Below, in pieces: positions 3,399 to 64,000 of a stretch of 64,000 nucleotides of DNA (positions within the stretch are counted from its first letter, which is position 1; every line of letters begins with the position of its first letter). The DNA is taken from the NCBI GenBank assembly GCA_000004985.1, contig GG738894.1; one strand, 5' to 3'. The position numbers and the translations under genes were made by a program. Source of the stretch: Naegleria gruberi (lineage: Eukaryota). A model generated the notes under the pieces. It saw only the letters and a list, made by a program, of their open reading frames with translations. It did not search any database and was not told the DNA's origin.

Positions 3399-3552
3399 TT
3401 TTAATATTAGATTTTCTTGATCATCAAAATTTTAATTTATTAAAAACAATAAAATGTAACGGAAATCTCATTTTTGGCAATTCCTTAAGATAATAAAAAA
3501 AACAGAGTTTCATCTTTTTTATTATCAATTGCTTGATAGGAATTTGAGAAAG

Positions 3553-5112
3553 ATGGGAAATACAGTTTCAACGGATGAACAATTGATAGCTGTTTCAAAG
3601 GAATCCTTACAGTCGGTTGCTAATGTAAAATCAGAGGAAGTCTTCAAGGTTCCTGGCTTTTTTACTTCGGAGCCTGAAGAAGGTTTTCCAAACATTGATG
3701 GTTTCAGGCCGACCATGTATTACTTGTTGGATGAGGAGAGTGGTTACAAGCATTGTATTTTGGAGAAATATCATCAGAAGAGGATGAGGAAAATAGATAT
3801 TATTATATTGTTAGATTATTTACGGAGAGGAAGATGGATCAACATGTGAGAGAAAGACTTGAAGAGGAAGAGAAGGCAGCAAAGGAATTTCCATCATTGA
3901 TGCAGAAAGTGGAGATTCATAATGCTACTTTGAAATTGTATGTAAATTAGTAATTATTTAATATTGAATAATTTTCAATTTAAATATAATTGATGATGCA
4001 ATTCTCGATAATAGTGGAGAAGAAAAGAAGGCAGCCCTTTTTAAGGTTGGAAGTGATGAGGGAAATTCATTCATGTCTCTTTTTGGTTTGAATGGATCTA
4101 ATTTGAATTATTATATGAGGGTTAGATTGGTCAGTTCTGCAATTTTGAATGTTGTCAAGTTGTTTGAATTGAGTGAGAGAAAGTATTGCTTCCATCCTAT
4201 CGATATTTCACACGTTGCTATTCAGGAGAATTTGAATATGAGATTTTTCGATTGTCTTCATGTTATTGCTTATCAGAATGATAGAGGTAGGTGTTTGATT
4301 GTTGGATATTAATTTTCACACATTTTCAGAATCAATTTTCAACCTAGGATTGAGGACTGTTTGTAAAATAGGAGTTTGTATATTGACATTTAATGAAGCT
4401 CTTTATAATAAGGACATATTCTTTGAGGAATGGCTTTCCAATCCAAATACTGTAAGTTATTTGATTTGGATTCGTTGCAATAACATTACTGTTATCAATT
4501 GACCTACCATCAATCAAGACAATTCCTGTATTTTCAACCCTATTTAAAAAAGTATTATTGGATAATAATTTCAAATTGGATGATATTAAAAGCGAGTTGA
4601 GCATATTGGAAATATTAAGCAAACGAACAATTGATCCATCAGTTGTTAATTCTGAAAATTTCAAAGATTTAATAACAATGTATGGAAGCTTATTGTCTCA
4701 TCGTCAGTCAGATCCTTTCCATGACACATTAATGCAATATCTCACTCAATTAATTTCTATAACAGCCCAAAATCATAAGGAAGATCTGTTACAATGTAAC
4801 GAAAATTCATTCTTGTGTACATTATTATTGAATTCAATCTTTAAGAGAGATCTCACAAATAATGCCACCAATGTTTCTGATCAAATCAAAGCACTTTCAA
4901 ACATTTTCAGAGGTGTTTATTCAGAAAAGCCAGAACTCATTGAAATGATTTCTACTGCATTGAAAAATTCCAAAAAGACTATCAGTAATGATCTCGGAGT
5001 GTCAAGAATAATTCTCGATGCTAAACTGTTTATAGAGCTATTATTTTCATCAAATGGGCATGCTATTTCAGAGGAAGAAGTGGACAGTATATCTAAATGG
5101 ATGTTTGCTTAA
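3553..5112 (+). CDS. Multi-exon gene of unknown function. The 3' exons are resolved as ...-3937, 4015-4286, 4330-4451 and 4519-5112. The 5' part (ATG at 3553, MGNTVSTDEQ...) changes frame once between ~3735 and 3850 by a junction I could not place.
   Basis: Introns have canonical boundaries: GTATGT at 3938 to AG at 4014 (77 nt), GTAGGT at 4287 to TTTTCAG at 4329 (43 nt), and GTAAGT at 4452 to AG at 4518 (67 nt). Joins keep one continuous frame: ...ATLKL|GEEKKAALFKVGSDEGNSFMSLFGLNGS...YQNDRG|ESIFNLGLRTVCK...SNPNT|TIPVFSTLFKKVLLDNNFKLDD...SKWMFA*. The N-terminal MGN... suggests N-myristoylation. No family assignment. Confidence 0.4.
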
Positions 5113-5424
5113 TGATGAAAATTGTTTTCAACGTTTTAACTGCATTCACCAAATAGAAAACCTTTGTGTGTGAACGACTAATTACCAGTGGAATCACATG
5201 ACTAAAAGCACACATGAACAATAATAGCTAGTGAACATGTTACAGCTTATTAGTTGTTAAATAATATTGTAATACTAAGAATCTCATTCTTTTTAAGGAA
5301 AAGAGCATGAAAAAGTCGCCGATTCAAACAGCATTTCTCCTTATTAAACGCAGTCCATATTCCATTTCATCCATTCTATATTTAAATACCAATTTGTGAT
5401 TCTTTCTTTTTACAATACAAAAAA

Positions 5425-5835
5425 ATGTCCAAAATACTTCCACCATTCACATTAGAAACTGCCCAAAAGAAAGTTAAACTTGCACAAGATAATTGGAATT
5501 CAAAAGATCCAGAACGCATTGCTCTCGCCTACACTGAAGATTGTGAATGGAGAAATAGAAATGAATTCATTAAGGGAAGAACTGATATTAAAAAATTCCT
5601 TAAAAAAAAGTATGCCAAAGAATTAGATTACAAATTGGAAAAATATTTATTTGCATTTATGGATAACAAAATTTCAGTTCATTTTCAATATGAATATCAC
5701 AATGAAAATGGACAATGGTTCCGAGCTTATGGAAATGAGAATTGGGAATTTGATTGGGAATCGGGATTAATGATGAAGAGAGATGCAAGTATTAATGATC
5801 TTGCAATTCAAGAATCCGAAAGGAAATTTAAATAA
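5425..5835 (+). CDS. DUF1348 family protein (NTF2-like/SnoaL-like fold), single exon, 136 aa.
   Basis: Strong match to the conserved DUF1348 core as recalled from bacterial/fungal members: [21 protein letters not shown]...[63 protein letters not shown]-rich start context aaaaaATG. Codon usage matches the host. Confidence 0.7.
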
Positions 5836-5870
5836 ATCTATTGAAGTATAATTATCCAATCCTAAAAATA

Positions 5871-8800
5871 TTAAATACTGATATTTTCAGCAGTTGGTGA
5901 AGAACAACTGTCATCATTTCCACTCAACATTTGAATCTTTCTCTTCATTAAATTATTGTGTTCCATCAGATCTAACAAGTGACGATTCAATTTTTCACCA
6001 GGTACAACTGTTGTTCGAGGTGTGATTGGAGAGGTGGTTATAATTGGTTCTTCTGGAGTATCGTGTAATTGTGAAAGTGTACTCTCAATTGATTCAATGG
6101 TTGTCTCTTGTGATATTTCTGGTTCAGGTAGAACTGCAGTTCTGAAAGTGAGAAGTGGAGAAGCAACACGAATATCCAATAATTGCATACTCATTCTCAA
6201 CAATTCAGTTTCGTACGATTTCATCTTGGTTCTCAAATTAGTTGTTTGAATGTCCTTCAATTCTGAAAGCTCTTCTGATAATTCCTTAAATTGATTTCCA
6301 AATTGATTCTCCACTATTTGGAATGCATCCTTATCTCCCTTATCTGCCAATAAATTTCTAAAAGTCTCTAGGAGAGACTGTAATTTGAATATTGTCATGT
6401 CAATCTCTTTGGTTTTTTGTTGAATATCATTTCTGAACTTGTCCTTCAATGAACTCAATTTGGAGTATAATACATTAACCAAAGATGATTCATTGGTTGG
6501 AAATTCTGAGGCATCTACTGAATTTGAATTCGATGGTGAAGTAGCTTCTTCCATCGTTGAGGAGGTAGTTGTTGGAGTTGTTGCTACTGTAGGACTGGAT
6601 GTGGCCTTTGAGTTTAGAACAGGGAATGAATTTTGACGTTTCAAATCCTTAAATCTTCTCTCCTTCAATGAATTTGGAATAACCAAAAACAAGGTTGTGT
6701 TCTTGAGACCTGACTTGGCAGTGACACAATTGTCCAATCTCTGAACCAGTGATTCAATAGTATTAGTATCTGGAGGCAATGTATTATTTTGCTTTTCAAT
6801 TGCCAAATTTTCCATTACTTGAGCTTCTGCTAGTGTCTGACCTCCCTGTGCATATTGAGCTATCATTGAGGCTCTCCTGATGGCTTGCAGTGTTGAGTCG
6901 GTGAACTTTTTAGAACGAGCAGAGATACCCATTCGACAACGAAGTCCTCTAAATAAGAGTTTGATATTATTCTTCTGATAGGTGCAAATTCCTTCGAGTG
7001 AGAGAAGAGAATCTGGCCAATCGGCATCCATCATTTTAGTTTGAACTAGGAGTGAGAATTTGAGAGCTTGTCTCGCAGTTTCAAATCCACACACTACTGA
7101 ATCACTCACAATATTGTGGAATTCATCATGTTTCACAGCAGGTGTAGTGTCCATTCCCATATTTTCCTTGAGACATCTCCTCAAAACATCAAAATAGATT
7201 GAAACACTCTTGGTAATGTCCTCGTGTGGAATACTCCACAATTGATTACATCCTTGCAAGTCACAATACACAAAATATTTCAATCTCTCCTCAATGTCAA
7301 AGAATTTAGTTTCGTGAGAAGCATTGAGTGAAACTTCTGGAATGGACATTTTACAATATCCCTCCTTTTCAGCTTCTATAATTTCCAAAATAGAGTACAA
7401 ATCTTCCATATCCTTCTTTACGTGTTCAATTTCTTCCCTAACTGTTGCTTGTTGCATTTTCAATGAATCTTCGAGTTGTTTAATTTTCATGTCCAATTTT
7501 TCTTGTTGAATGGAGGTGGCCAATGAATTCTCAGAGAAGGGTTTCGTTGGAGAATAGGGAACCGAATTGGAATTATTCATCACAGAGAGGTTATTATTCG
7601 ATGAGAACTTTTTAACCATCAGTGGTGAAATGGTAATGGTATTGTTACCTCCACTATTCTTTCGAGGAGGAGATTCTGGAGGCAATTGTGGAAAGACAAT
7701 TTGAGGAGGCGTATTTTCAGAATCGATTCGAGCCGATCCATTGAAAGATCTTGCAGATTTGATTGAAATTGGTGCAGAGGAAACTGAATCATTGCTTCGT
7801 GTCGTAGTTTGTCCATTCACCAACGAGTCAGGAACCAAATAACTCTCATTCTCATCAATTAAAAAGAAGGTGTCATATTTTGGAGCTGTTGGTACAGTTT
7901 TAGAGGTTTGCCTCTCTCGTGTTGAAATACTATCGGTAAGCCACATTGAACTGATTTGCATTCTCAATTTGGCTGTCAATACTAGAGGTGAATTTGATGG
8001 AGCTTCAATTGACAATTTAACTGGAACGAGAATGGTTCTACTCATTGAACCCACTCCACAATAAATCATATGTGGAGGAGTTACAAAATCTGTCAAATTC
8101 AACTTGACAAAACCACTTCTCTTATCACTTGTAATTCTTCCACTGCCACTACTTTTCAATTCTCTAATTTCCAAAACGAGGGGTTTATCTTCCAATAACG
8201 ATTGCATATTCTTGACATAGAATGGTAAAAATGGATCTTCTTGTGAACCACTTCCAGATCCTGAACCATTATTCGAATTTAACATGTTAATTATTTCAGT
8301 TAATGGTTTTTCCTTCTTTGGTTTAAAATCACACACAAAATCATATTCATAATCCTTAAAATCTGCCAAATAAATAATGGAATTCTTTTTAGAGTTTGGT
8401 GAATTTTGATTTGTCGAGTTTGGATTTGTCGATGGAGACATGGATCGACTCCAACACGTATTAATATAATCATAATCTTCAAAAATTGCATCATTGGAAC
8501 ATGTTTTTGAAATGACATTTGCTGGTTCAGTTGCTCCACCAATTACGAAACTATTCGATCCACTTCTACTAAAAAGTGATGAAATACTTGATTCTTCCTC
8601 ATTATTTTGCAATACTTTCCAATGAATGGAATATCTGGATTGTAACAATTTCATTAGGGCATTAGAAACTGCAATCGATTCAGAATCTTCTGAACGTTGA
8701 GAAGCACTTGAAATTCCACTATTTGTACTTCTGGAAGTTTCATTTCCATTTTGTGGTTCATTATTACTGTAATTGTGGAACATTTTGTGTCCTAGTGTGT

Positions 8801-9137
8801 GAATTGAAACATTTCCACTATTATTATTACCAAAAGATGATGAACGTCCCAAATTGGAGTTTCCACCACTTTCGTTTACTTTTTCTAATGATGATGCAAG
8901 TGTCATTAAATCAAAATCTTCCAATGCGAATATATGAATGTTAAATAGACATTTTAATTGTGTAGGATCACTATTATTCGAATTTGATTTAATGGCTGCA
9001 GTAACTTTGCTGTTGGAACGGGCACGTGGCAGGTTAGAGGTTGATGATGAAGATGATGATGGTTTCATATGTCGTTGAACATCGAGACGTCCTTCGTTGG
9101 CGTCGTTTATACTGCCGAATCTAAATAATCTCTTCAT
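5871..9137 (-). CDS. Large (1088 aa) S/N-rich coiled-coil protein, function unknown; possible NT-C2-like region near the N-terminus.
   Basis: Uninterrupted 3.27-kb ORF. N-terminal ...KCLFNIHIFALEDFDLMTL... loosely resembles the EEIG1/EHBP1 N-terminal C2 pattern. A central conserved-looking block (CDLQGCNQLWSIPHEDIT...GICTYQKNNIKLLFRGLRCRMGISARSKKFTDSTLQAIRRASMIAQYAQGGQTL) has no family I can name. The C-terminal third is heptad-rich (coiled coil). Confidence 0.55.
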   Translation of the reverse strand: MKRLFRFGSINDANEGRLDVQRHMKPSSSSSSTSNLPRARSNSKVTAAIKSNSNNSDPTQLKCLFNIHIFALEDFDLMTLASSLEKVNESGGNSNLGRSSSFGNNNSGNVSIHTLGHKMFHNYSNNEPQNGNETSRSTNSGISSASQRSEDSESIAVSNALMKLLQSRYSIHWKVLQNNEEESSISSLFSRSGSNSFVIGGATEPANVISKTCSNDAIFEDYDYINTCWSRSMSPSTNPNSTNQNSPNSKKNSIIYLADFKDYEYDFVCDFKPKKEKPLTEIINMLNSNNGSGSGSGSQEDPFLPFYVKNMQSLLEDKPLVLEIRELKSSGSGRITSDKRSGFVKLNLTDFVTPPHMIYCGVGSMSRTILVPVKLSIEAPSNSPLVLTAKLRMQISSMWLTDSISTRERQTSKTVPTAPKYDTFFLIDENESYLVPDSLVNGQTTTRSNDSVSSAPISIKSARSFNGSARIDSENTPPQIVFPQLPPESPPRKNSGGNNTITISPLMVKKFSSNNNLSVMNNSNSVPYSPTKPFSENSLATSIQQEKLDMKIKQLEDSLKMQQATVREEIEHVKKDMEDLYSILEIIEAEKEGYCKMSIPEVSLNASHETKFFDIEERLKYFVYCDLQGCNQLWSIPHEDITKSVSIYFDVLRRCLKENMGMDTTPAVKHDEFHNIVSDSVVCGFETARQALKFSLLVQTKMMDADWPDSLLSLEGICTYQKNNIKLLFRGLRCRMGISARSKKFTDSTLQAIRRASMIAQYAQGGQTLAEAQVMENLAIEKQNNTLPPDTNTIESLVQRLDNCVTAKSGLKNTTLFLVIPNSLKERRFKDLKRQNSFPVLNSKATSSPTVATTPTTTSSTMEEATSPSNSNSVDASEFPTNESSLVNVLYSKLSSLKDKFRNDIQQKTKEIDMTIFKLQSLLETFRNLLADKGDKDAFQIVENQFGNQFKELSEELSELKDIQTTNLRTKMKSYETELLRMSMQLLDIRVASPLLTFRTAVLPEPEISQETTIESIESTLSQLHDTPEEPIITTSPITPRTTVVPGEKLNRHLLDLMEHNNLMKRKIQMLSGNDDSCSSPTAENISI

Positions 9138-54928: not shown

Positions 54929-56488
54929 TTAAGGATTTAAGAGTTTCTCTGTTTTTTGGTTTTTTAACAATTGCAGACTTATNNNNNNNNNNNNNNNNNN
55001 NNNNNNNNNNNNNNNNNNNNNNNNNNNNNNNNCCATATATAGATCAAATAAATAAACCACACAAACGATTAGTGACATGGCCATGACAAAGGAAAATACT
55101 GAACCTGCCATAATATCTGTATATTCAATACTTGAAATATTCTGAGATAGACGCAATCCAAGGAAAATTGCATAAAAGGCAATGAAAATAATTGAAAATA
55201 CCAAGTTGAGTATTACAATAAATGCCTTACTTGTGAGAACAAACTTGATCCATTTAAATCTCTTTTCAAGAGTCATATCAACCTTATTTTCATCCAATTT
55301 TGCCATAATTTCGTACACATATCTGAAGGCAACAAATCTCACATTTAGAATCGTATAATTTAAAATTGCTAAACAATAGAACAAGCAAGAAATGAAAGAT
55401 GAAACATATTTGACAACAGTAGAAGCTTCAGAATTACTTTCTAATAAAATTGCATTGGAAATAATGAATAAAAATACCAATTCTATCAAAATAGATATCA
55501 ATGATAAATATGGAATGATTCCTCTACTTTTGGTTGGAGTTTTTCTATGAGTGGAAATGACACCAATTAGGGTACAGATAGTAAATAGGATTAATAAGGA
55601 TCCAATAACAATCGATGCAATGGCAATGTTCTTATCTGTTACCGTGTTGAGTTTGGACTCTACAAACGCAGAGAAAGTTGTTGTGTGATTACAGAGACAG
55701 TTGACTGTCGAAGATGCAGCATCAATTTGTGTGGTACATCCATTAGAGAGCCATTCATTTTTTGTTTCATTGAAATATCTACAAGTAATTTTCAAGGTTG
55801 ATGATGAAATTGTTGAATTATCCACTGTAAATGTCATTTTGATTGGATTAATGAGTTCACTAACTTGTAAAAAGTTTCCATTTGAAATATACTTCAAATC
55901 TATTGGATTTACAATATTGACCAATGTAGAGTTTGATAGATAGGTTGAAGTATTTGTGAAATTATTGGTCAACTTGGTGCTACTTGAGGAATCAAAAATT
56001 TTAGCCAACTTTTCAACATTCAAATAATTGACACTGGAAATTGAAACTCCTTCCAATAGTAACAACTCACTTGGAGTTTCAATTGATGTATTTCCATTAC
56101 TGACCAATAAAATGTTGGCATTTCTGACAACTGACACAACAAATGAGCTAGTACTTGCAGAAAACACATTATCTTTAACAGAACTTGCTTTGGATGAAAC
56201 AATTAACATGTTATCAATAACTTCTGTTGAATTAGCAATGTAATTATTTGAACTGAGAATATTAGAAAAGGTGTTCAAAACTTGACTGACAGTTGTGTCA
56301 ATTGTGGAAGAAGCTTGCAATGAGGAAGATGATAATTTTGTTAAATCTGTTGATATTTCATTCACCATTGAGGAAACAGTTGAAATAATAGATGAAGTGA
56401 CAGCTGACATGGATGAAATAACATTCAATGCCTTAGTTACCTTTGAGGTTTCGTCAAGATTTGTAGTATTTCTTTCACTTGTTGCCAA
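54929..56488 (-). CDS. Adhesion-type (family B-like) GPCR with S/T-rich ectodomain and GPS/GAIN cleavage motif followed by 7TM. Partial, interrupted by N-gaps.
   Basis: GPS motif WLSNGCTTQIDAASSTVNCLCNHTTTFSAFVE sits immediately before TM1 (IAIASIVIGSLLILFTICTLIGVI). Six further hydrophobic helices. The ORF is broken by the 49-nt N run at 54984-55032, and its 5' end runs into the gap starting 56509, so the N-terminus is not determined. Confidence 0.6.
   Translation of the reverse strand: MATSERNTTNLDETSKVTKALNVISSMSAVTSSIISTVSSMVNEISTDLTKLSSSSLQASSTIDTTVSQVLNTFSNILSSNNYIANSTEVIDNMLIVSSKASSVKDNVFSASTSSFVVSVVRNANILLVSNGNTSIETPSELLLLEGVSISSVNYLNVEKLAKIFDSSSSTKLTNNFTNTSTYLSNSTLVNIVNPIDLKYISNGNFLQVSELINPIKMTFTVDNSTISSSTLKITCRYFNETKNEWLSNGCTTQIDAASSTVNCLCNHTTTFSAFVESKLNTVTDKNIAIASIVIGSLLILFTICTLIGVISTHRKTPTKSRGIIPYLSLISILIELVFLFIISNAILLESNSEASTVVKYVSSFISCLFYCLAILNYTILNVRFVAFRYVYEIMAKLDENKVDMTLEKRFKWIKFVLTSKAFIVILNLVFSIIFIAFYAIFLGLRLSQNISSIEYTDIMAGSVFSFVMAMSLIVCVVYLFDLYMXXXXXXXXXXXXXXXXXISLQLLKNQKTEKLLNP
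54984..55032. other. Assembly gap (49 N) inside the GPCR coding region.
   Basis: Run of n characters. Confidence 1.
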
Positions 56489-56508: not shown

Positions 56509-59500
56509 NNNNNNNNNNNNNNNNNNNNNNNNNNNNNNNNNNNNNNNNNNNNNNNNNNNNNNNNNNNNNNNNNNNNNNNNNNNNNNNNNNNNNNNNNNNN
56601 NNNNNNNNNNNNNNNNNNNNNNNNNNNNNNNNNNNNNNNNNNNNNNNNNNNNNNNNNNNNNNNNNNNNNNNNNNNNNNNNNNNNNNNNNNNNNNNNNNNN
56701 NNNNNNNNNNNNNNNNNNNNNNNNNNNNNNNNNNNNNNNNNNNNNNNNNNNNNNNNNNNNNNNNNNNNNNNNNNNNNNNNNNNNNNNNNNNNNNNNNNNN
56801 NNNNNNNNNNNNNNNNNNNNNNNNNNNNNNNNNNNNNNNNNNNNNNNNNNNNNNNNNNNNNNNNNNNNNNNNNNNNNNNNNNNNNNNNNNNNNNNNNNNN
56901 NNNNNNNNNNNNNNNNNNNNNNNNNNNNNNNNNNNNNNNNNNNNNNNNNNNNNNNNNNNNNNNNNNNNNNNNNNNNNNNNNNNNNNNNNNNNNNNNNNNN
57001 NNNNNNNNNNNNNNNNNNNNNNNNNNNNNNNNNNNNNNNNNNNNNNNNNNNNNNNNNNNNNNNNNNNNNNNNNNNNNNNNNNNNNNNNNNNNNNNNNNNN
57101 NNNNNNNNNNNNNNNNNNNNNNNNNNNNNNNNNNNNNNNNNNNNNNNNNNNNNNNNNNNNNNNNNNNNNNNNNNNNNNNNNNNNNNNNNNNNNNNNNNNN
57201 NNNNNNNNNNNNNNNNNNNNNNNNNNNNNNNNNNNNNNNNNNNNNNNNNNNNNNNNNNNNNNNNNNNNNNNNNNNNNNNNNNNNNNNNNNNNNNNNNNNN
57301 NNNNNNNNNNNNNNNNNNNNNNNNNNNNNNNNNNNNNNNNNNNNNNNNNNNNNNNNNNNNNNNNNNNNNNNNNNNNNNNNNNNNNNNNNNNNNNNNNNNN
57401 NNNNNNNNNNNNNNNNNNNNNNNNNNNNNNNNNNNNNNNNNNNNNNNNNNNNNNNNNNNNNNNNNNNNNNNNNNNNNNNNNNNNNNNNNNNNNNNNNNNN
57501 NNNNNNNNNNNNNNNNNNNNNNNNNNNNNNNNNNNNNNNNNNNNNNNNNNNNNNNNNNNNNNNNNNNNNNNNNNNNNNNNNNNNNNNNNNNNNNNNNNNN
57601 NNNNNNNNNNNNNNNNNNNNNNNNNNNNNNNNNNNNNNNNNNNNNNNNNNNNNNNNNNNNNNNNNNNNNNNNNNNNNNNNNNNNNNNNNNNNNNNNNNNN
57701 NNNNNNNNNNNNNNNNNNNNNNNNNNNNNNNNNNNNNNNNNNNNNNNNNNNNNNNNNNNNNNNNNNNNNNNNNNNNNNNNNNNNNNNNNNNNNNNNNNNN
57801 NNNNNNNNNNNNNNNNNNNNNNNNNNNNNNNNNNNNNNNNNNNNNNNNNNNNNNNNNNNNNNNNNNNNNNNNNNNNNNNNNNNNNNNNNNNNNNNNNNNN
57901 NNNNNNNNNNNNNNNNNNNNNNNNNNNNNNNNNNNNNNNNNNNNNNNNNNNNNNNNNNNNNNNNNNNNNNNNNNNNNNNNNNNNNNNNNNNNNNNNNNNN
58001 NNNNNNNNNNNNNNNNNNNNNNNNNNNNNNNNNNNNNNNNNNNNNNNNNNNNNNNNNNNNNNNNNNNNNNNNNNNNNNNNNNNNNNNNNNNNNNNNNNNN
58101 NNNNNNNNNNNNNNNNNNNNNNNNNNNNNNNNNNNNNNNNNNNNNNNNNNNNNNNNNNNNNNNNNNNNNNNNNNNNNNNNNNNNNNNNNNNNNNNNNNNN
58201 NNNNNNNNNNNNNNNNNNNNNNNNNNNNNNNNNNNNNNNNNNNNNNNNNNNNNNNNNNNNNNNNNNNNNNNNNNNNNNNNNNNNNNNNNNNNNNNNNNNN
58301 NNNNNNNNNNNNNNNNNNNNNNNNNNNNNNNNNNNNNNNNNNNNNNNNNNNNNNNNNNNNNNNNNNNNNNNNNNNNNNNNNNNNNNNNNNNNNNNNNNNN
58401 NNNNNNNNNNNNNNNNNNNNNNNNNNNNNNNNNNNNNNNNNNNNNNNNNNNNNNNNNNNNNNNNNNNNNNNNNNNNNNNNNNNNNNNNNNNNNNNNNNNN
58501 NNNNNNNNNNNNNNNNNNNNNNNNNNNNNNNNNNNNNNNNNNNNNNNNNNNNNNNNNNNNNNNNNNNNNNNNNNNNNNNNNNNNNNNNNNNNNNNNNNNN
58601 NNNNNNNNNNNNNNNNNNNNNNNNNNNNNNNNNNNNNNNNNNNNNNNNNNNNNNNNNNNNNNNNNNNNNNNNNNNNNNNNNNNNNNNNNNNNNNNNNNNN
58701 NNNNNNNNNNNNNNNNNNNNNNNNNNNNNNNNNNNNNNNNNNNNNNNNNNNNNNNNNNNNNNNNNNNNNNNNNNNNNNNNNNNNNNNNNNNNNNNNNNNN
58801 NNNNNNNNNNNNNNNNNNNNNNNNNNNNNNNNNNNNNNNNNNNNNNNNNNNNNNNNNNNNNNNNNNNNNNNNNNNNNNNNNNNNNNNNNNNNNNNNNNNN
58901 NNNNNNNNNNNNNNNNNNNNNNNNNNNNNNNNNNNNNNNNNNNNNNNNNNNNNNNNNNNNNNNNNNNNNNNNNNNNNNNNNNNNNNNNNNNNNNNNNNNN
59001 NNNNNNNNNNNNNNNNNNNNNNNNNNNNNNNNNNNNNNNNNNNNNNNNNNNNNNNNNNNNNNNNNNNNNNNNNNNNNNNNNNNNNNNNNNNNNNNNNNNN
59101 NNNNNNNNNNNNNNNNNNNNNNNNNNNNNNNNNNNNNNNNNNNNNNNNNNNNNNNNNNNNNNNNNNNNNNNNNNNNNNNNNNNNNNNNNNNNNNNNNNNN
59201 NNNNNNNNNNNNNNNNNNNNNNNNNNNNNNNNNNNNNNNNNNNNNNNNNNNNNNNNNNNNNNNNNNNNNNNNNNNNNNNNNNNNNNNNNNNNNNNNNNNN
59301 NNNNNNNNNNNNNNNNNNNNNNNNNNNNNNNNNNNNNNNNNNNNNNNNNNNNNNNNNNNNNNNNNNNNNNNNNNNNNNNNNNNNNNNNNNNNNNNNNNNN
59401 NNNNNNNNNNNNNNNNNNNNNNNNNNNNNNNNNNNNNNNNNNNNNNNNNNNNNNNNNNNNNNNNNNNNNNNNNNNNNNNNNNNNNNNNNNNNNNNNNNNN

Positions 59501-62500
59501 NNNNNNNNNNNNNNNNNNNNNNNNNNNNNNNNNNNNNNNNNNNNNNNNNNNNNNNNNNNNNNNNNNNNNNNNNNNNNNNNNNNNNNNNNNNNNNNNNNNN
59601 NNNNNNNNNNNNNNNNNNNNNNNNNNNNNNNNNNNNNNNNNNNNNNNNNNNNNNNNNNNNNNNNNNNNNNNNNNNNNNNNNNNNNNNNNNNNNNNNNNNN
59701 NNNNNNNNNNNNNNNNNNNNNNNNNNNNNNNNNNNNNNNNNNNNNNNNNNNNNNNNNNNNNNNNNNNNNNNNNNNNNNNNNNNNNNNNNNNNNNNNNNNN
59801 NNNNNNNNNNNNNNNNNNNNNNNNNNNNNNNNNNNNNNNNNNNNNNNNNNNNNNNNNNNNNNNNNNNNNNNNNNNNNNNNNNNNNNNNNNNNNNNNNNNN
59901 NNNNNNNNNNNNNNNNNNNNNNNNNNNNNNNNNNNNNNNNNNNNNNNNNNNNNNNNNNNNNNNNNNNNNNNNNNNNNNNNNNNNNNNNNNNNNNNNNNNN
60001 NNNNNNNNNNNNNNNNNNNNNNNNNNNNNNNNNNNNNNNNNNNNNNNNNNNNNNNNNNNNNNNNNNNNNNNNNNNNNNNNNNNNNNNNNNNNNNNNNNNN
60101 NNNNNNNNNNNNNNNNNNNNNNNNNNNNNNNNNNNNNNNNNNNNNNNNNNNNNNNNNNNNNNNNNNNNNNNNNNNNNNNNNNNNNNNNNNNNNNNNNNNN
60201 NNNNNNNNNNNNNNNNNNNNNNNNNNNNNNNNNNNNNNNNNNNNNNNNNNNNNNNNNNNNNNNNNNNNNNNNNNNNNNNNNNNNNNNNNNNNNNNNNNNN
60301 NNNNNNNNNNNNNNNNNNNNNNNNNNNNNNNNNNNNNNNNNNNNNNNNNNNNNNNNNNNNNNNNNNNNNNNNNNNNNNNNNNNNNNNNNNNNNNNNNNNN
60401 NNNNNNNNNNNNNNNNNNNNNNNNNNNNNNNNNNNNNNNNNNNNNNNNNNNNNNNNNNNNNNNNNNNNNNNNNNNNNNNNNNNNNNNNNNNNNNNNNNNN
60501 NNNNNNNNNNNNNNNNNNNNNNNNNNNNNNNNNNNNNNNNNNNNNNNNNNNNNNNNNNNNNNNNNNNNNNNNNNNNNNNNNNNNNNNNNNNNNNNNNNNN
60601 NNNNNNNNNNNNNNNNNNNNNNNNNNNNNNNNNNNNNNNNNNNNNNNNNNNNNNNNNNNNNNNNNNNNNNNNNNNNNNNNNNNNNNNNNNNNNNNNNNNN
60701 NNNNNNNNNNNNNNNNNNNNNNNNNNNNNNNNNNNNNNNNNNNNNNNNNNNNNNNNNNNNNNNNNNNNNNNNNNNNNNNNNNNNNNNNNNNNNNNNNNNN
60801 NNNNNNNNNNNNNNNNNNNNNNNNNNNNNNNNNNNNNNNNNNNNNNNNNNNNNNNNNNNNNNNNNNNNNNNNNNNNNNNNNNNNNNNNNNNNNNNNNNNN
60901 NNNNNNNNNNNNNNNNNNNNNNNNNNNNNNNNNNNNNNNNNNNNNNNNNNNNNNNNNNNNNNNNNNNNNNNNNNNNNNNNNNNNNNNNNNNNNNNNNNNN
61001 NNNNNNNNNNNNNNNNNNNNNNNNNNNNNNNNNNNNNNNNNNNNNNNNNNNNNNNNNNNNNNNNNNNNNNNNNNNNNNNNNNNNNNNNNNNNNNNNNNNN
61101 NNNNNNNNNNNNNNNNNNNNNNNNNNNNNNNNNNNNNNNNNNNNNNNNNNNNNNNNNNNNNNNNNNNNNNNNNNNNNNNNNNNNNNNNNNNNNNNNNNNN
61201 NNNNNNNNNNNNNNNNNNNNNNNNNNNNNNNNNNNNNNNNNNNNNNNNNNNNNNNNNNNNNNNNNNNNNNNNNNNNNNNNNNNNNNNNNNNNNNNNNNNN
61301 NNNNNNNNNNNNNNNNNNNNNNNNNNNNNNNNNNNNNNNNNNNNNNNNNNNNNNNNNNNNNNNNNNNNNNNNNNNNNNNNNNNNNNNNNNNNNNNNNNNN
61401 NNNNNNNNNNNNNNNNNNNNNNNNNNNNNNNNNNNNNNNNNNNNNNNNNNNNNNNNNNNNNNNNNNNNNNNNNNNNNNNNNNNNNNNNNNNNNNNNNNNN
61501 NNNNNNNNNNNNNNNNNNNNNNNNNNNNNNNNNNNNNNNNNNNNNNNNNNNNNNNNNNNNNNNNNNNNNNNNNNNNNNNNNNNNNNNNNNNNNNNNNNNN
61601 NNNNNNNNNNNNNNNNNNNNNNNNNNNNNNNNNNNNNNNNNNNNNNNNNNNNNNNNNNNNNNNNNNNNNNNNNNNNNNNNNNNNNNNNNNNNNNNNNNNN
61701 NNNNNNNNNNNNNNNNNNNNNNNNNNNNNNNNNNNNNNNNNNNNNNNNNNNNNNNNNNNNNNNNNNNNNNNNNNNNNNNNNNNNNNNNNNNNNNNNNNNN
61801 NNNNNNNNNNNNNNNNNNNNNNNNNNNNNNNNNNNNNNNNNNNNNNNNNNNNNNNNNNNNNNNNNNNNNNNNNNNNNNNNNNNNNNNNNNNNNNNNNNNN
61901 NNNNNNNNNNNNNNNNNNNNNNNNNNNNNNNNNNNNNNNNNNNNNNNNNNNNNNNNNNNNNNNNNNNNNNNNNNNNNNNNNNNNNNNNNNNNNNNNNNNN
62001 NNNNNNNNNNNNNNNNNNNNNNNNNNNNNNNNNNNNNNNNNNNNNNNNNNNNNNNNNNNNNNNNNNNNNNNNNNNNNNNNNNNNNNNNNNNNNNNNNNNN
62101 NNNNNNNNNNNNNNNNNNNNNNNNNNNNNNNNNNNNNNNNNNNNNNNNNNNNNNNNNNNNNNNNNNNNNNNNNNNNNNNNNNNNNNNNNNNNNNNNNNNN
62201 NNNNNNNNNNNNNNNNNNNNNNNNNNNNNNNNNNNNNNNNNNNNNNNNNNNNNNNNNNNNNNNNNNNNNNNNNNNNNNNNNNNNNNNNNNNNNNNNNNNN
62301 NNNNNNNNNNNNNNNNNNNNNNNNNNNNNNNNNNNNNNNNNNNNNNNNNNNNNNNNNNNNNNNNNNNNNNNNNNNNNNNNNNNNNNNNNNNNNNNNNNNN
62401 NNNNNNNNNNNNNNNNNNNNNNNNNNNNNNNNNNNNNNNNNNNNNNNNNNNNNNNNNNNNNNNNNNNNNNNNNNNNNNNNNNNNNNNNNNNNNNNNNNNN

Positions 62501-64000
62501 NNNNNNNNNNNNNNNNNNNNNNNNNNNNNNNNNNNNNNNNNNNNNNNNNNNNNNNNNNNNNNNNNNNNNNNNNNNNNNNNNNNNNNNNNNNNNNNNNNNN
62601 NNNNNNNNNNNNNNNNNNNNNNNNNNNNNNNNNNNNNNNNNNNNNNNNNNNNNNNNNNNNNNNNNNNNNNNNNNNNNNNNNNNNNNNNNNNNNNNNNNNN
62701 NNNNNNNNNNNNNNNNNNNNNNNNNNNNNNNNNNNNNNNNNNNNNNNNNNNNNNNNNNNNNNNNNNNNNNNNNNNNNNNNNNNNNNNNNNNNNNNNNNNN
62801 NNNNNNNNNNNNNNNNNNNNNNNNNNNNNNNNNNNNNNNNNNNNNNNNNNNNNNNNNNNNNNNNNNNNNNNNNNNNNNNNNNNNNNNNNNNNNNNNNNNN
62901 NNNNNNNNNNNNNNNNNNNNNNNNNNNNNNNNNNNNNNNNNNNNNNNNNNNNNNNNNNNNNNNNNNNNNNNNNNNNNNNNNNNNNNNNNNNNNNNNNNNN
63001 NNNNNNNNNNNNNNNNNNNNNNNNNNNNNNNNNNNNNNNNNNNNNNNNNNNNNNNNNNNNNNNNNNNNNNNNNNNNNNNNNNNNNNNNNNNNNNNNNNNN
63101 NNNNNNNNNNNNNNNNNNNNNNNNNNNNNNNNNNNNNNNNNNNNNNNNNNNNNNNNNNNNNNNNNNNNNNNNNNNNNNNNNNNNNNNNNNNNNNNNNNNN
63201 NNNNNNNNNNNNNNNNNNNNNNNNNNNNNNNNNNNNNNNNNNNNNNNNNNNNNNNNNNNNNNNNNNNNNNNNNNNNNNNNNNNNNNNNNNNNNNNNNNNN
63301 NNNNNNNNNNNNNNNNNNNNNNNNNNNNNNNNNNNNNNNNNNNNNNNNNNNNNNNNNNNNNNNNNNNNNNNNNNNNNNNNNNNNNNNNNNNNNNNNNNNN
63401 NNNNNNNNNNNNNNNNNNNNNNNNNNNNNNNNNNNNNNNNNNNNNNNNNNNNNNNNNNNNNNNNNNNNNNNNNNNNNNNNNNNNNNNNNNNNNNNNNNNN
63501 NNNNNNNNNNNNNNNNNNNNNNNNNNNNNNNNNNNNNNNNNNNNNNNNNNNNNNNNNNNNNNNNNNNNNNNNNNNNNNNNNNNNNNNNNNNNNNNNNNNN
63601 NNNNNNNNNNNNNNNNNNNNNNNNNNNNNNNNNNNNNNNNNNNNNNNNNNNNNNNNNNNNNNNNNNNNNNNNNNNNNNNNNNNNNNNNNNNNNNNNNNNN
63701 NNNNNNNNNNNNNNNNNNNNNNNNNNNNNNNNNNNNNNNNNNNNNNNNNNNNNNNNNNNNNNNNNNNNNNNNNNNNNNNNNNNNNNNNNNNNNNNNNNNN
63801 NNNNNNNNNNNNNNNNNNNNNNNNNNNNNNNNNNNNNNNNNNNNNNNNNNNNNNNNNNNNNNNNNNNNNNNNNNNNNNNNNNNNNNNNNNNNNNNNNNNN
63901 NNNNNNNNNNNNNNNNNNNNNNNNNNNNNNNNNNNNNNNNNNNNNNNNNNNNNNNNNNNNNNNNNNNNNNNNNNNNNNNNNNNNNNNNNNNNNNNNNNNN
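56509..64000. other. Assembly gap / unsequenced region (about 7.5 kb of N) to the end of the window.
   Basis: Uninterrupted n from 56509 to 64000. Confidence 1.

Follow-up and report, generated by a model that had tools for sequence, protein, structure and literature searches.

An intronless DUF1348 gene in the heterolobosean Naegleria gruberi and its plausible acquisition from bacteria

A structure of the DUF1348 family (PF07080) was solved in 2006, and the structural representative of PF07080 is 2IMJ, PFL_3262 of Pseudomonas fluorescens. We know of no DUF1348 member with a defined biochemical activity, and to our knowledge 71cR of the fungus Cercospora nicotianae is the only member with any phenotype. 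It has been reported that C. nicotianae 71cR in Neurospora raised the resistance to photoactivated cercosporin, a perylenequinone, and that the knockout of 71cR in Cercospora had no phenotype (PMC4608573). As for gene acquisition in the lineage of interest here, 1253 supported horizontal gene transfers (HGTs) were described for the heterolobosean Acrasis kona (PMC11589745), and a study of Naegleria reported genes derived from cyanobacteria (PMC3087521). The text and four supplementary files of the Acrasis study, in the portions that were searched, contain no mention of DUF1348 or of the Naegleria gene (PMC11589745). Neither the locus tags and accessions of this gene nor a candidacy for HGT was found in the literature searched, which covered work other than the HGT table of the N. 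gruberi genome paper and in which three papers name DUF1348.

The gene studied here lies in a window of 64,000 nucleotides (the whole stretch of DNA that was analysed) from contig GG738894.1 of the N. gruberi assembly GCA_000004985.1. N. gruberi is a heterolobosean (Heterolobosea, Discoba) and not an amoebozoan. An exact-sequence look-up showed that the gene was already annotated as NAEGRDRAFT_81075 (XP_002672871.1; UniProt D2VSI5, named 'DUF1348 domain-containing protein'), and the N. gruberi scaffold which holds it together with its neighbour NAEGRDRAFT_51913 is 499,907 bp long. A previous reading of this DNA from its letters alone (hereafter the sequence-only reading) had described a full-length intronless DUF1348 copy between spliced eukaryotic genes. 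The first part of this description was confirmed, since the open reading frame occupies exactly positions 5425-5835 of the plus strand and the Pfam match runs from end to end. The second part was right for one flank only: the upstream gene on the plus strand looks multi-exonic, whereas the downstream gene on the minus strand is a single exon. Upstream, a chain of plus-strand ORFs with shifting frames runs from about position 3529 on and suggests a multi-exon gene, and its terminal coding segment gave no Pfam match. The downstream gene encodes a protein with Ser/Asn-rich low-complexity sequence, for which the Pfam search found no domain and the 20-kb N. fowleri locus contained no homologue. The stop codons of the two convergent genes fall within positions 5833-5873, and as they are so close together the 3' ends of both transcripts must be very short or overlap. 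The upstream intergenic region is presumed, from its position, to contain the promoter and the 5' UTR of the DUF1348 gene. Further along the window there is a 50-N scaffold gap at 54983-55032; the last real base is 56,508 and positions 56509-64000 are all N. The coordinates of these features, together with those of the bacterial gene clusters considered below, are collected in Table 1.

Table 1 Features of the N. gruberi locus (positions in the window) and loci of the related bacterial gene clusters
Feature	Coordinates	Strand	Basis or detail
Terminal coding segment of the upstream neighbour	4558..5112	+	ORF lists
Upstream intergenic region, 312 nt, GC 0.30	5113..5424	+	Sequence, composition
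DUF1348 CDS, NAEGRDRAFT_81075	5425..5835	+	Single exon, ATG start, 136 codons + TAA
Spacer of 35 nt between the stop codons of the two convergent genes	5836..5870		ORF coordinates
NAEGRDRAFT_51913, 1088 aa, convergent downstream neighbour	5871..9137	-	Exact match XP_002672943.1
Bacteroidota-type cluster loci	L004 4022-8123; L035 8001-9875; L053, L037, L030, L040, L041, L101		
Cyanobacterial cluster loci	L005/L006 2724-6423; L009/L010		TetR, then GST, PPOX-like, cupin_7, PTP/NADK-like, DUF1348

The assignment of the encoded protein to DUF1348 was clear. The PF07080 profile was matched over its whole length (1-130 of 130) by residues 6-136 with 205.8 bits (E = 2.4e-61), compared with a gathering cut-off of 22.1 bits, and the protein has the NTF2-like alpha+beta cone fold of the family as seen in 2IMJ. 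An alternative assignment as SgcJ/EcaC family oxidoreductase (TIGR02246) was rejected, the match reaching 23.9 bits against a cut-off of 33.95 and covering residues 21-67 only. All 38 columns that are invariant over 40 sequences from Naegleria, bacteria and fungi are kept in the Naegleria protein, including the motifs WN, YT, WRNR, YE, W.R.YG.E.W.F and G.M..R..S.N. The polar and aromatic members of this set are W24, N25, Y36, W42, R43, N44, R45, K62, E66, Y69, K73, Y89, E90, R100, Y102, E105, R119, S122 and N124, and many invariant residues stand at alternating positions on four long strands. By our reading of this pattern, the invariant residues may form the wall of a conserved cavity that takes a polar ligand. 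The protein carries no C-terminal tail and, because the domain begins at about residue 5-6, no N-terminal targeting extension.

The sequence-only reading had regarded DUF1348 as predominantly bacterial with scattered fungal members, which proved too simple: the family is kingdom-wide in Fungi and occurs in several algal lineages. When 1.84 billion cluster representatives were scanned without a profile, 3400 passed E <= 1e-3 and 158 passed E <= 1e-30, and the groups given below come from labelling these together with two further homology searches. In Fungi the family was found in chytrids (Chytriomyces, Obelidium, Nowakowskiella, Homolaphlyctis), Mucoromycota and Dikarya, including 71cR of Cercospora; in green algae in Mantoniella, Tetradesmus, Micractinium, Chlorella, Parachlorella and Monoraphidium; and a red-lineage clade comprised the red alga Timspurckia (MMETSP1172), brown algae and the cryptophyte Rhodomonas. 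The grouping of Timspurckia with brown algae and a cryptophyte suggests that DUF1348 spread with red plastids. A Symbiodinium-type group was also found, and there are at least four sizeable eukaryotic clades. A hornwort and a choanoflagellate are represented by one transcriptome sequence each, the provenance of which is uncertain. Homologues with 56-60% identity to the Naegleria protein were also present in thaumarchaeal Nitrososphaera MAGs (L021, L025), so that the family spans all three domains. A pattern-based scan of GTDB genomes with the Naegleria protein returned 10 loci, a set that does not include the closest relatives.

Some members differ from the plain domain. Algal members (P0194, P0275, P0210, P0236, P0203, P0430, P0433) are extended at the N-terminus by 40-120 aa, which could represent targeting peptides or a TM segment, and cryptophyte-type members have an Ala/Glu-rich C-terminal tail. 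Apparent fusions were seen as well (P0233, P0125, P0178), namely a MoaC-like domain with DUF1348 in a green-alga-like sequence with Ala/Ser-rich inserts, thioredoxin with DUF1348 in a bacterial protein, and a 436-aa Symbiodinium protein annotated 'bcas2'. These fusions may be gene-model artefacts.

The sequence-only reading had proposed an ancient horizontal transfer from bacteria. In our analysis horizontal transfer of the Naegleria gene is plausible but unproven; a bacterial origin before the radiation of Naegleria is the best-supported reading, which we consider likely. According to this reading a functional nuclear gene would have been gained from a bacterium by horizontal transfer before the split of N. 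gruberi and N. fowleri, with low-GC Bacteroidota-type short forms as its nearest sampled relatives, and after entry it would have come under purifying selection and taken on the codon usage and start context of the host. The similarity search agreed with it. After Naegleria itself, the best 120 matches were cyanobacterial or Bacteroidota wherever they were named, at 205-215 bits, and among the matches listed the named proteins above 200 bits outside Naegleria (Pseudanabaena, Chitinophaga, a Bacteroidota MAG) were all bacterial, with about 70% identity between Naegleria and bacteria. The best other eukaryotes were Chlorella sorokiniana (190 bits), the hornwort transcript (179.5) and fungi (165.5); no discoban besides Naegleria appeared among the matches listed. 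Attraction by composition was rejected as an explanation of the bacterial top matches, because the Lys/FYMINK content of fungi is as high as that of the Bacteroidota type and the cyanobacteria with the highest scores are not rich in Lys.

In NJ trees (135 columns, Kimura distances) bootstrap support was 97-98% for the Naegleria clade, 93% for Fungi and 74% for the red-lineage clade. The attachment of the Naegleria clade received 18-22% with the Bacteroidota type and 12% with Fungi, and no bipartition joining Naegleria and green algae reached 6%. Recoding into Dayhoff-6 classes left too little signal, the monophyly of Naegleria itself falling to 50%. The clade was also placed by likelihood, using our own implementation of a reversible model derived from Gonnet 1992 (+F +G4, alpha ~0.9), in which the clade was tried with local optimisation on every edge of a fixed NJ backbone with ML branch lengths (135 alignment columns), and support was given as RELL and KH-type statistics. 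With 113 taxa, the Bacteroidota-type group took 94% of the likelihood weight, and RELL was 0.50 for the Bacteroidota group proper and 0.28 for an adjacent set in which P0150, the second-best neighbour (RELL 0.26), predominated. Classification of P0150 as near-Bacteroidota was rejected: it is a green alga, with TMA17 and a split PsbP gene on its contig, and its relatives belong to Chlorophyta. Once green algae were sampled (152 taxa, 149-taxon backbone), the Bacteroidota-type placement had a RELL of 0.84 (LWR ~1.0), cyanobacteria had 0.025, and all eukaryote-adjacent placements together had 0.10; green algae were behind by dlnL -18.0 (z 1.67), Fungi by -22.2 (z 1.67) and the red lineage by -45.6 (z 3.4). 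When 27 labelled sequences of bacterial and archaeal loci were added (179 taxa), the clade placed best next to P0457 (LWR 0.97); eukaryote-adjacent placements had a RELL of 0.16, and among eukaryotic positions the fungal stem did best (dlnL -15.4, z 1.1). P0457 is an unlabelled metagenome protein that counts as Bacteroidota-type only through the operon context of its relatives. The nearest neighbours are bacterial: one is a Chitinophaga protein from a 2.7-Mb contig, and others come from a Bacteroidota MAG, from a contig that also has a T9SS-tail gene, and from low-GC metagenome contigs as long as 1.7 Mb, with an ORF coverage of 90-93%.

The placement depends on the backbone. Of four bootstrap-derived backbones, whose fit was poorer by 280-490 lnL units, three gave a Bacteroidota-type best neighbour, and over the four the eukaryote-adjacent RELL ranged from 0.06 to 0.44. 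The best eukaryotic placements, with KH-type z values of 1.1-1.8, were not significantly worse and hence not rejected. Thus the phylogeny that the sequence-only reading had named as the check on its proposal came out on the bacterial side for the nearest sequences and for the favoured placement, while the low NJ support, the sensitivity to the backbone and the surviving eukaryotic sister placements keep the transfer short of proof.

The strongest competing explanation is eukaryotic ancestry, by which the gene was either inherited vertically from an early eukaryote with many losses elsewhere or taken from another eukaryote, for example a green alga, and its likeness to Bacteroidota and cyanobacteria would reflect slow evolution and retained ancestral states. 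The breadth of the family, which reaches Opisthokonta, Archaeplastida, stramenopiles, cryptophytes, dinoflagellates and Discoba, speaks for it, as do the scores of green algae against the Naegleria protein, the rank of green-algal P0150 before its own clade was sampled, and the eukaryotic placements that were not rejected, with RELL of 0.30-0.44 on some alternative backbones. However, the eukaryotic groups (Fungi with the Symbiodinium type, green algae, the red lineage) are separated from one another by bacterial sequences, the green-algal link dropped to a RELL of 0.05 with the sampling of green algae and stays below 6% in the NJ bipartitions, and the best named matches are bacterial. Derived characters were also considered. 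The fungal signatures YGLEDWTF, KRQMSGN and ERWF and the red-lineage signatures HGNE and GYM.WRDMSAN are absent from the Naegleria clade in the alignment, and Naegleria keeps the general bacterial states at these positions, although states common to Naegleria and bacteria may be plesiomorphic. A one-residue insertion after 'EFD' (query residues 110-112), present in all three Naegleria-type sequences, was examined as a character shared with fungi; within fungi it recurs only in one subclade of Chytridiales (Chytriomyces, Obelidium, P0204) and was rejected as convergent. Presence or absence of the C-terminal tail varies among clades and was likewise discarded as a marker. Taking both sides together, we regard eukaryotic ancestry as rather unlikely.

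If the bacterial origin is accepted, the donor could have been a Pseudanabaena-like cyanobacterium instead of a Bacteroidota-type bacterium. Pseudanabaena proteins, at 205-215 bits, make up most of the highest-scoring matches, the trees show the cyanobacteria-type and Bacteroidota-type clades as sisters, and a precedent exists in the cyanobacteria-derived genes of Naegleria (PMC3087521). Placement on or within the cyanobacteria-type clade was nevertheless 9-13 lnL units worse, with a RELL of 0.025-0.05, and such a donor seems very improbable to us.

Several lines of evidence showed that the gene belongs to the amoeba. The 3.3-kb ENA metagenome contig L002 (ERZ929261, PRJEB11402) aligned over its whole length to window positions 5245-8552 and has the same junction between the DUF1348 gene and the 1088-aa neighbour at 98.9% nucleotide identity, which indicates that the sample contained an N. 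gruberi-like amoeba; in the DUF1348 gene the L002 allele differs from N. gruberi by three synonymous changes and one non-synonymous change. The gene has a GC of 0.307 and a GC3 of 0.234, within the GC3 range of 0.17-0.35 of the 17 long ORFs in the window, and its CAI-like index, referenced to the same 17 ORFs, is 0.79 compared with 0.65-0.79 for these ORFs. Together with the A-rich context of the ATG start, AAAAAAATG, these values agree with the host-like A+T-rich codon usage and start context claimed in the sequence-only reading; as an argument they tell against contamination and do not separate HGT from vertical descent. The orthologue in N. fowleri (FDP41_008724), intronless and 142 aa long (73% identity), lies on a 252-kb contig, flanked by RGS, PH, RWD/Impact and actin-type genes, and a third Naegleria-type sequence with 77% identity came from a metagenome. 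The gene is thus common to several members of the recipient lineage, as an old and fixed acquisition should be, and scaffold neighbours, a second assembly and codon usage agree that it is physically integrated in host DNA. A bacterial contaminant ORF or a chimeric join in the scaffold, to which the roughly 70% similarity to bacterial proteins and the lack of introns might point, is scarcely credible given Naegleria genes on both sides, the junction repeated in an unrelated metagenome assembly, the host-like GC3 and CAI-like index, a best bacterial identity of <= 73% and the diverged orthologue in a eukaryotic context in N. fowleri. Integration without contamination, as the sequence-only reading had argued, was therefore upheld, the flanking junction having been recovered in the other assembly and chimerism excluded. 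Between the 56.5 kb of N. gruberi and the 20-kb locus of N. fowleri no microsynteny was found beyond DUF1348 itself, so that a single acquisition is indicated by the tree alone. For the two orthologues dN was 0.197, with synonymous sites saturated (pS = 0.72); this is a functional gene kept by purifying selection.

Clues to function came from the bacterial gene context. In Pseudanabaena the gene is the last in a co-directional cluster, beside a TetR gene, in which it follows GST, PPOX-like, cupin and PTP/NADK-like genes, and another lineage of the cyanobacteria type has TetR followed by two GST genes, an FMN-reductase fragment, a Zn-ADH gene, a PPOX-like gene and DUF1348. The Bacteroidota-type cluster consists of an AhpD/CMD-like gene, DUF1348, a gene for a PPOX-type (TIGR04025-like) FMN flavoprotein after a gap of 5-10 nt, and an AraC regulator; for example, in the Bacteroidota MAG the AhpD/CMD-like gene is upstream and DUF1348 is followed after 7 nt by the PPOX-like gene and then by AraC. 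The PPOX-like proteins of Bacteroidota and Pseudanabaena are orthologous (43% identity, E = 3e-53) and score above the Pfam PNPOx_N threshold, and the CMD protein scores above the threshold of the AhpD core domain. Counted over 80 related metagenome loci, with the loci that had enough flank as denominators, a PPOX-like gene directly adjoins DUF1348 in 17 of 65, 18 of 41 have an AhpD-like gene <= 2.2 kb upstream, and 15 of 43 have an AraC gene <= 2 kb downstream; the PPOX and AhpD linkage thus holds in a minority of loci. These recurrent neighbours suggest a redox or electrophile-detoxification role for DUF1348. In the Naegleria window no homologue of PPOX, cupin, GST or PTP was found, and a co-transfer of operon partners was rejected within that window.

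From these data a working mechanism can be proposed. The Naegleria protein would be a cytosolic NTF2-fold protein of 136 aa, a small cone-shaped enzyme or ligand-binding protein in which one face of the beta-sheet and the helices would bear the invariant polar and aromatic residues, and its substrate would probably be one conserved polar small molecule, on which it performs acid/base chemistry as an isomerase, hydrolase or dehydratase does. In bacteria DUF1348 would act alongside the FMN-dependent PPOX-type flavoprotein, the AhpD-like peroxidase-related protein and GSTs under AraC/TetR control, as part of a response to oxidative, quinone or electrophile stress. At the Naegleria locus the DUF1348 component would stand alone; because the protein has no targeting extension and the window no partner gene, a stand-alone cytosolic handling of a redox-active or electrophilic small molecule is proposed, each step of which we infer. 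As a whole, a functional gene of bacterial derivation that encodes a cytosolic NTF2-fold small-molecule protein is the best explanation we can offer, and we hold it to be rather probable. A much wider reading is that DUF1348 may be the portable core of a stress module against oxidants of the quinone or photosensitiser type or electrophiles, captured by at least three to four eukaryotic lineages. The module may comprise DUF1348, the PPOX-type FMN flavoprotein, the AhpD-like protein and, in some lineages, GSTs, with AraC/TetR control, and separate bacterium-to-eukaryote captures may have taken place in Fungi, green algae, red-lineage algae and Naegleria. We find this wider reading quite doubtful.

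If the bacterial origin is true, the gene is one more stress or metabolic gene taken from prey by a bacterivorous heterolobosean, and since transfer from bacteria to heteroloboseans has already been documented on a large scale, the Naegleria case changes little. Transfer of this kind is an ordinary event in amoebae, and a sequence as short as DUF1348 cannot prove it. More useful by-products of the analysis are the strong conservation of the family, its patchy distribution over several eukaryotic clades and its recurrent linkage with PPOX, AhpD, GST and stress-regulator genes. The operon linkage and the fungal cercosporin-resistance phenotype together give a testable functional hypothesis for DUF1348.

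The proteobacterial members represented by 2IMJ carry a C-terminal tail of about 20 aa, HWPLGRRPDDHPGLSELGL, whereas the Naegleria protein is a short form without it, and the insertion after 'EFD' sets it apart from both PF07080 and 2IMJ. To the NTF2-like or SnoaL-like enzymes, such as ketosteroid isomerase (KSI), the limonene and polyether epoxide hydrolases, LinA and the SnoaL cyclases, the identity is 11-17%, and Naegleria DUF1348 is a relative of the SnoaL and KSI enzymes at clan level only. The invariant set of DUF1348 contains many Arg, Lys, Glu and Tyr residues, and its ligand may accordingly be more polar than those of the SnoaL-like superfamily. Similar to the transferred genes of Acrasis kona, the gene is of a metabolic or stress type, intronless, ameliorated to its host and nearest to bacterial sequences, in a bacterivorous amoeba, but its support is weaker than the bootstrap criterion of >= 60% used in that study (PMC11589745). 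With 71cR it shares the family, about 50% identity and the form of a small cytosolic protein, whereas 71cR belongs to a separate fungal clade (93% bootstrap) with its own signatures YGLEDWTF, KRQMSGN and ERWF. The cercosporin resistance associated with 71cR fits the redox and detoxification context in which DUF1348 is found in bacterial operons.
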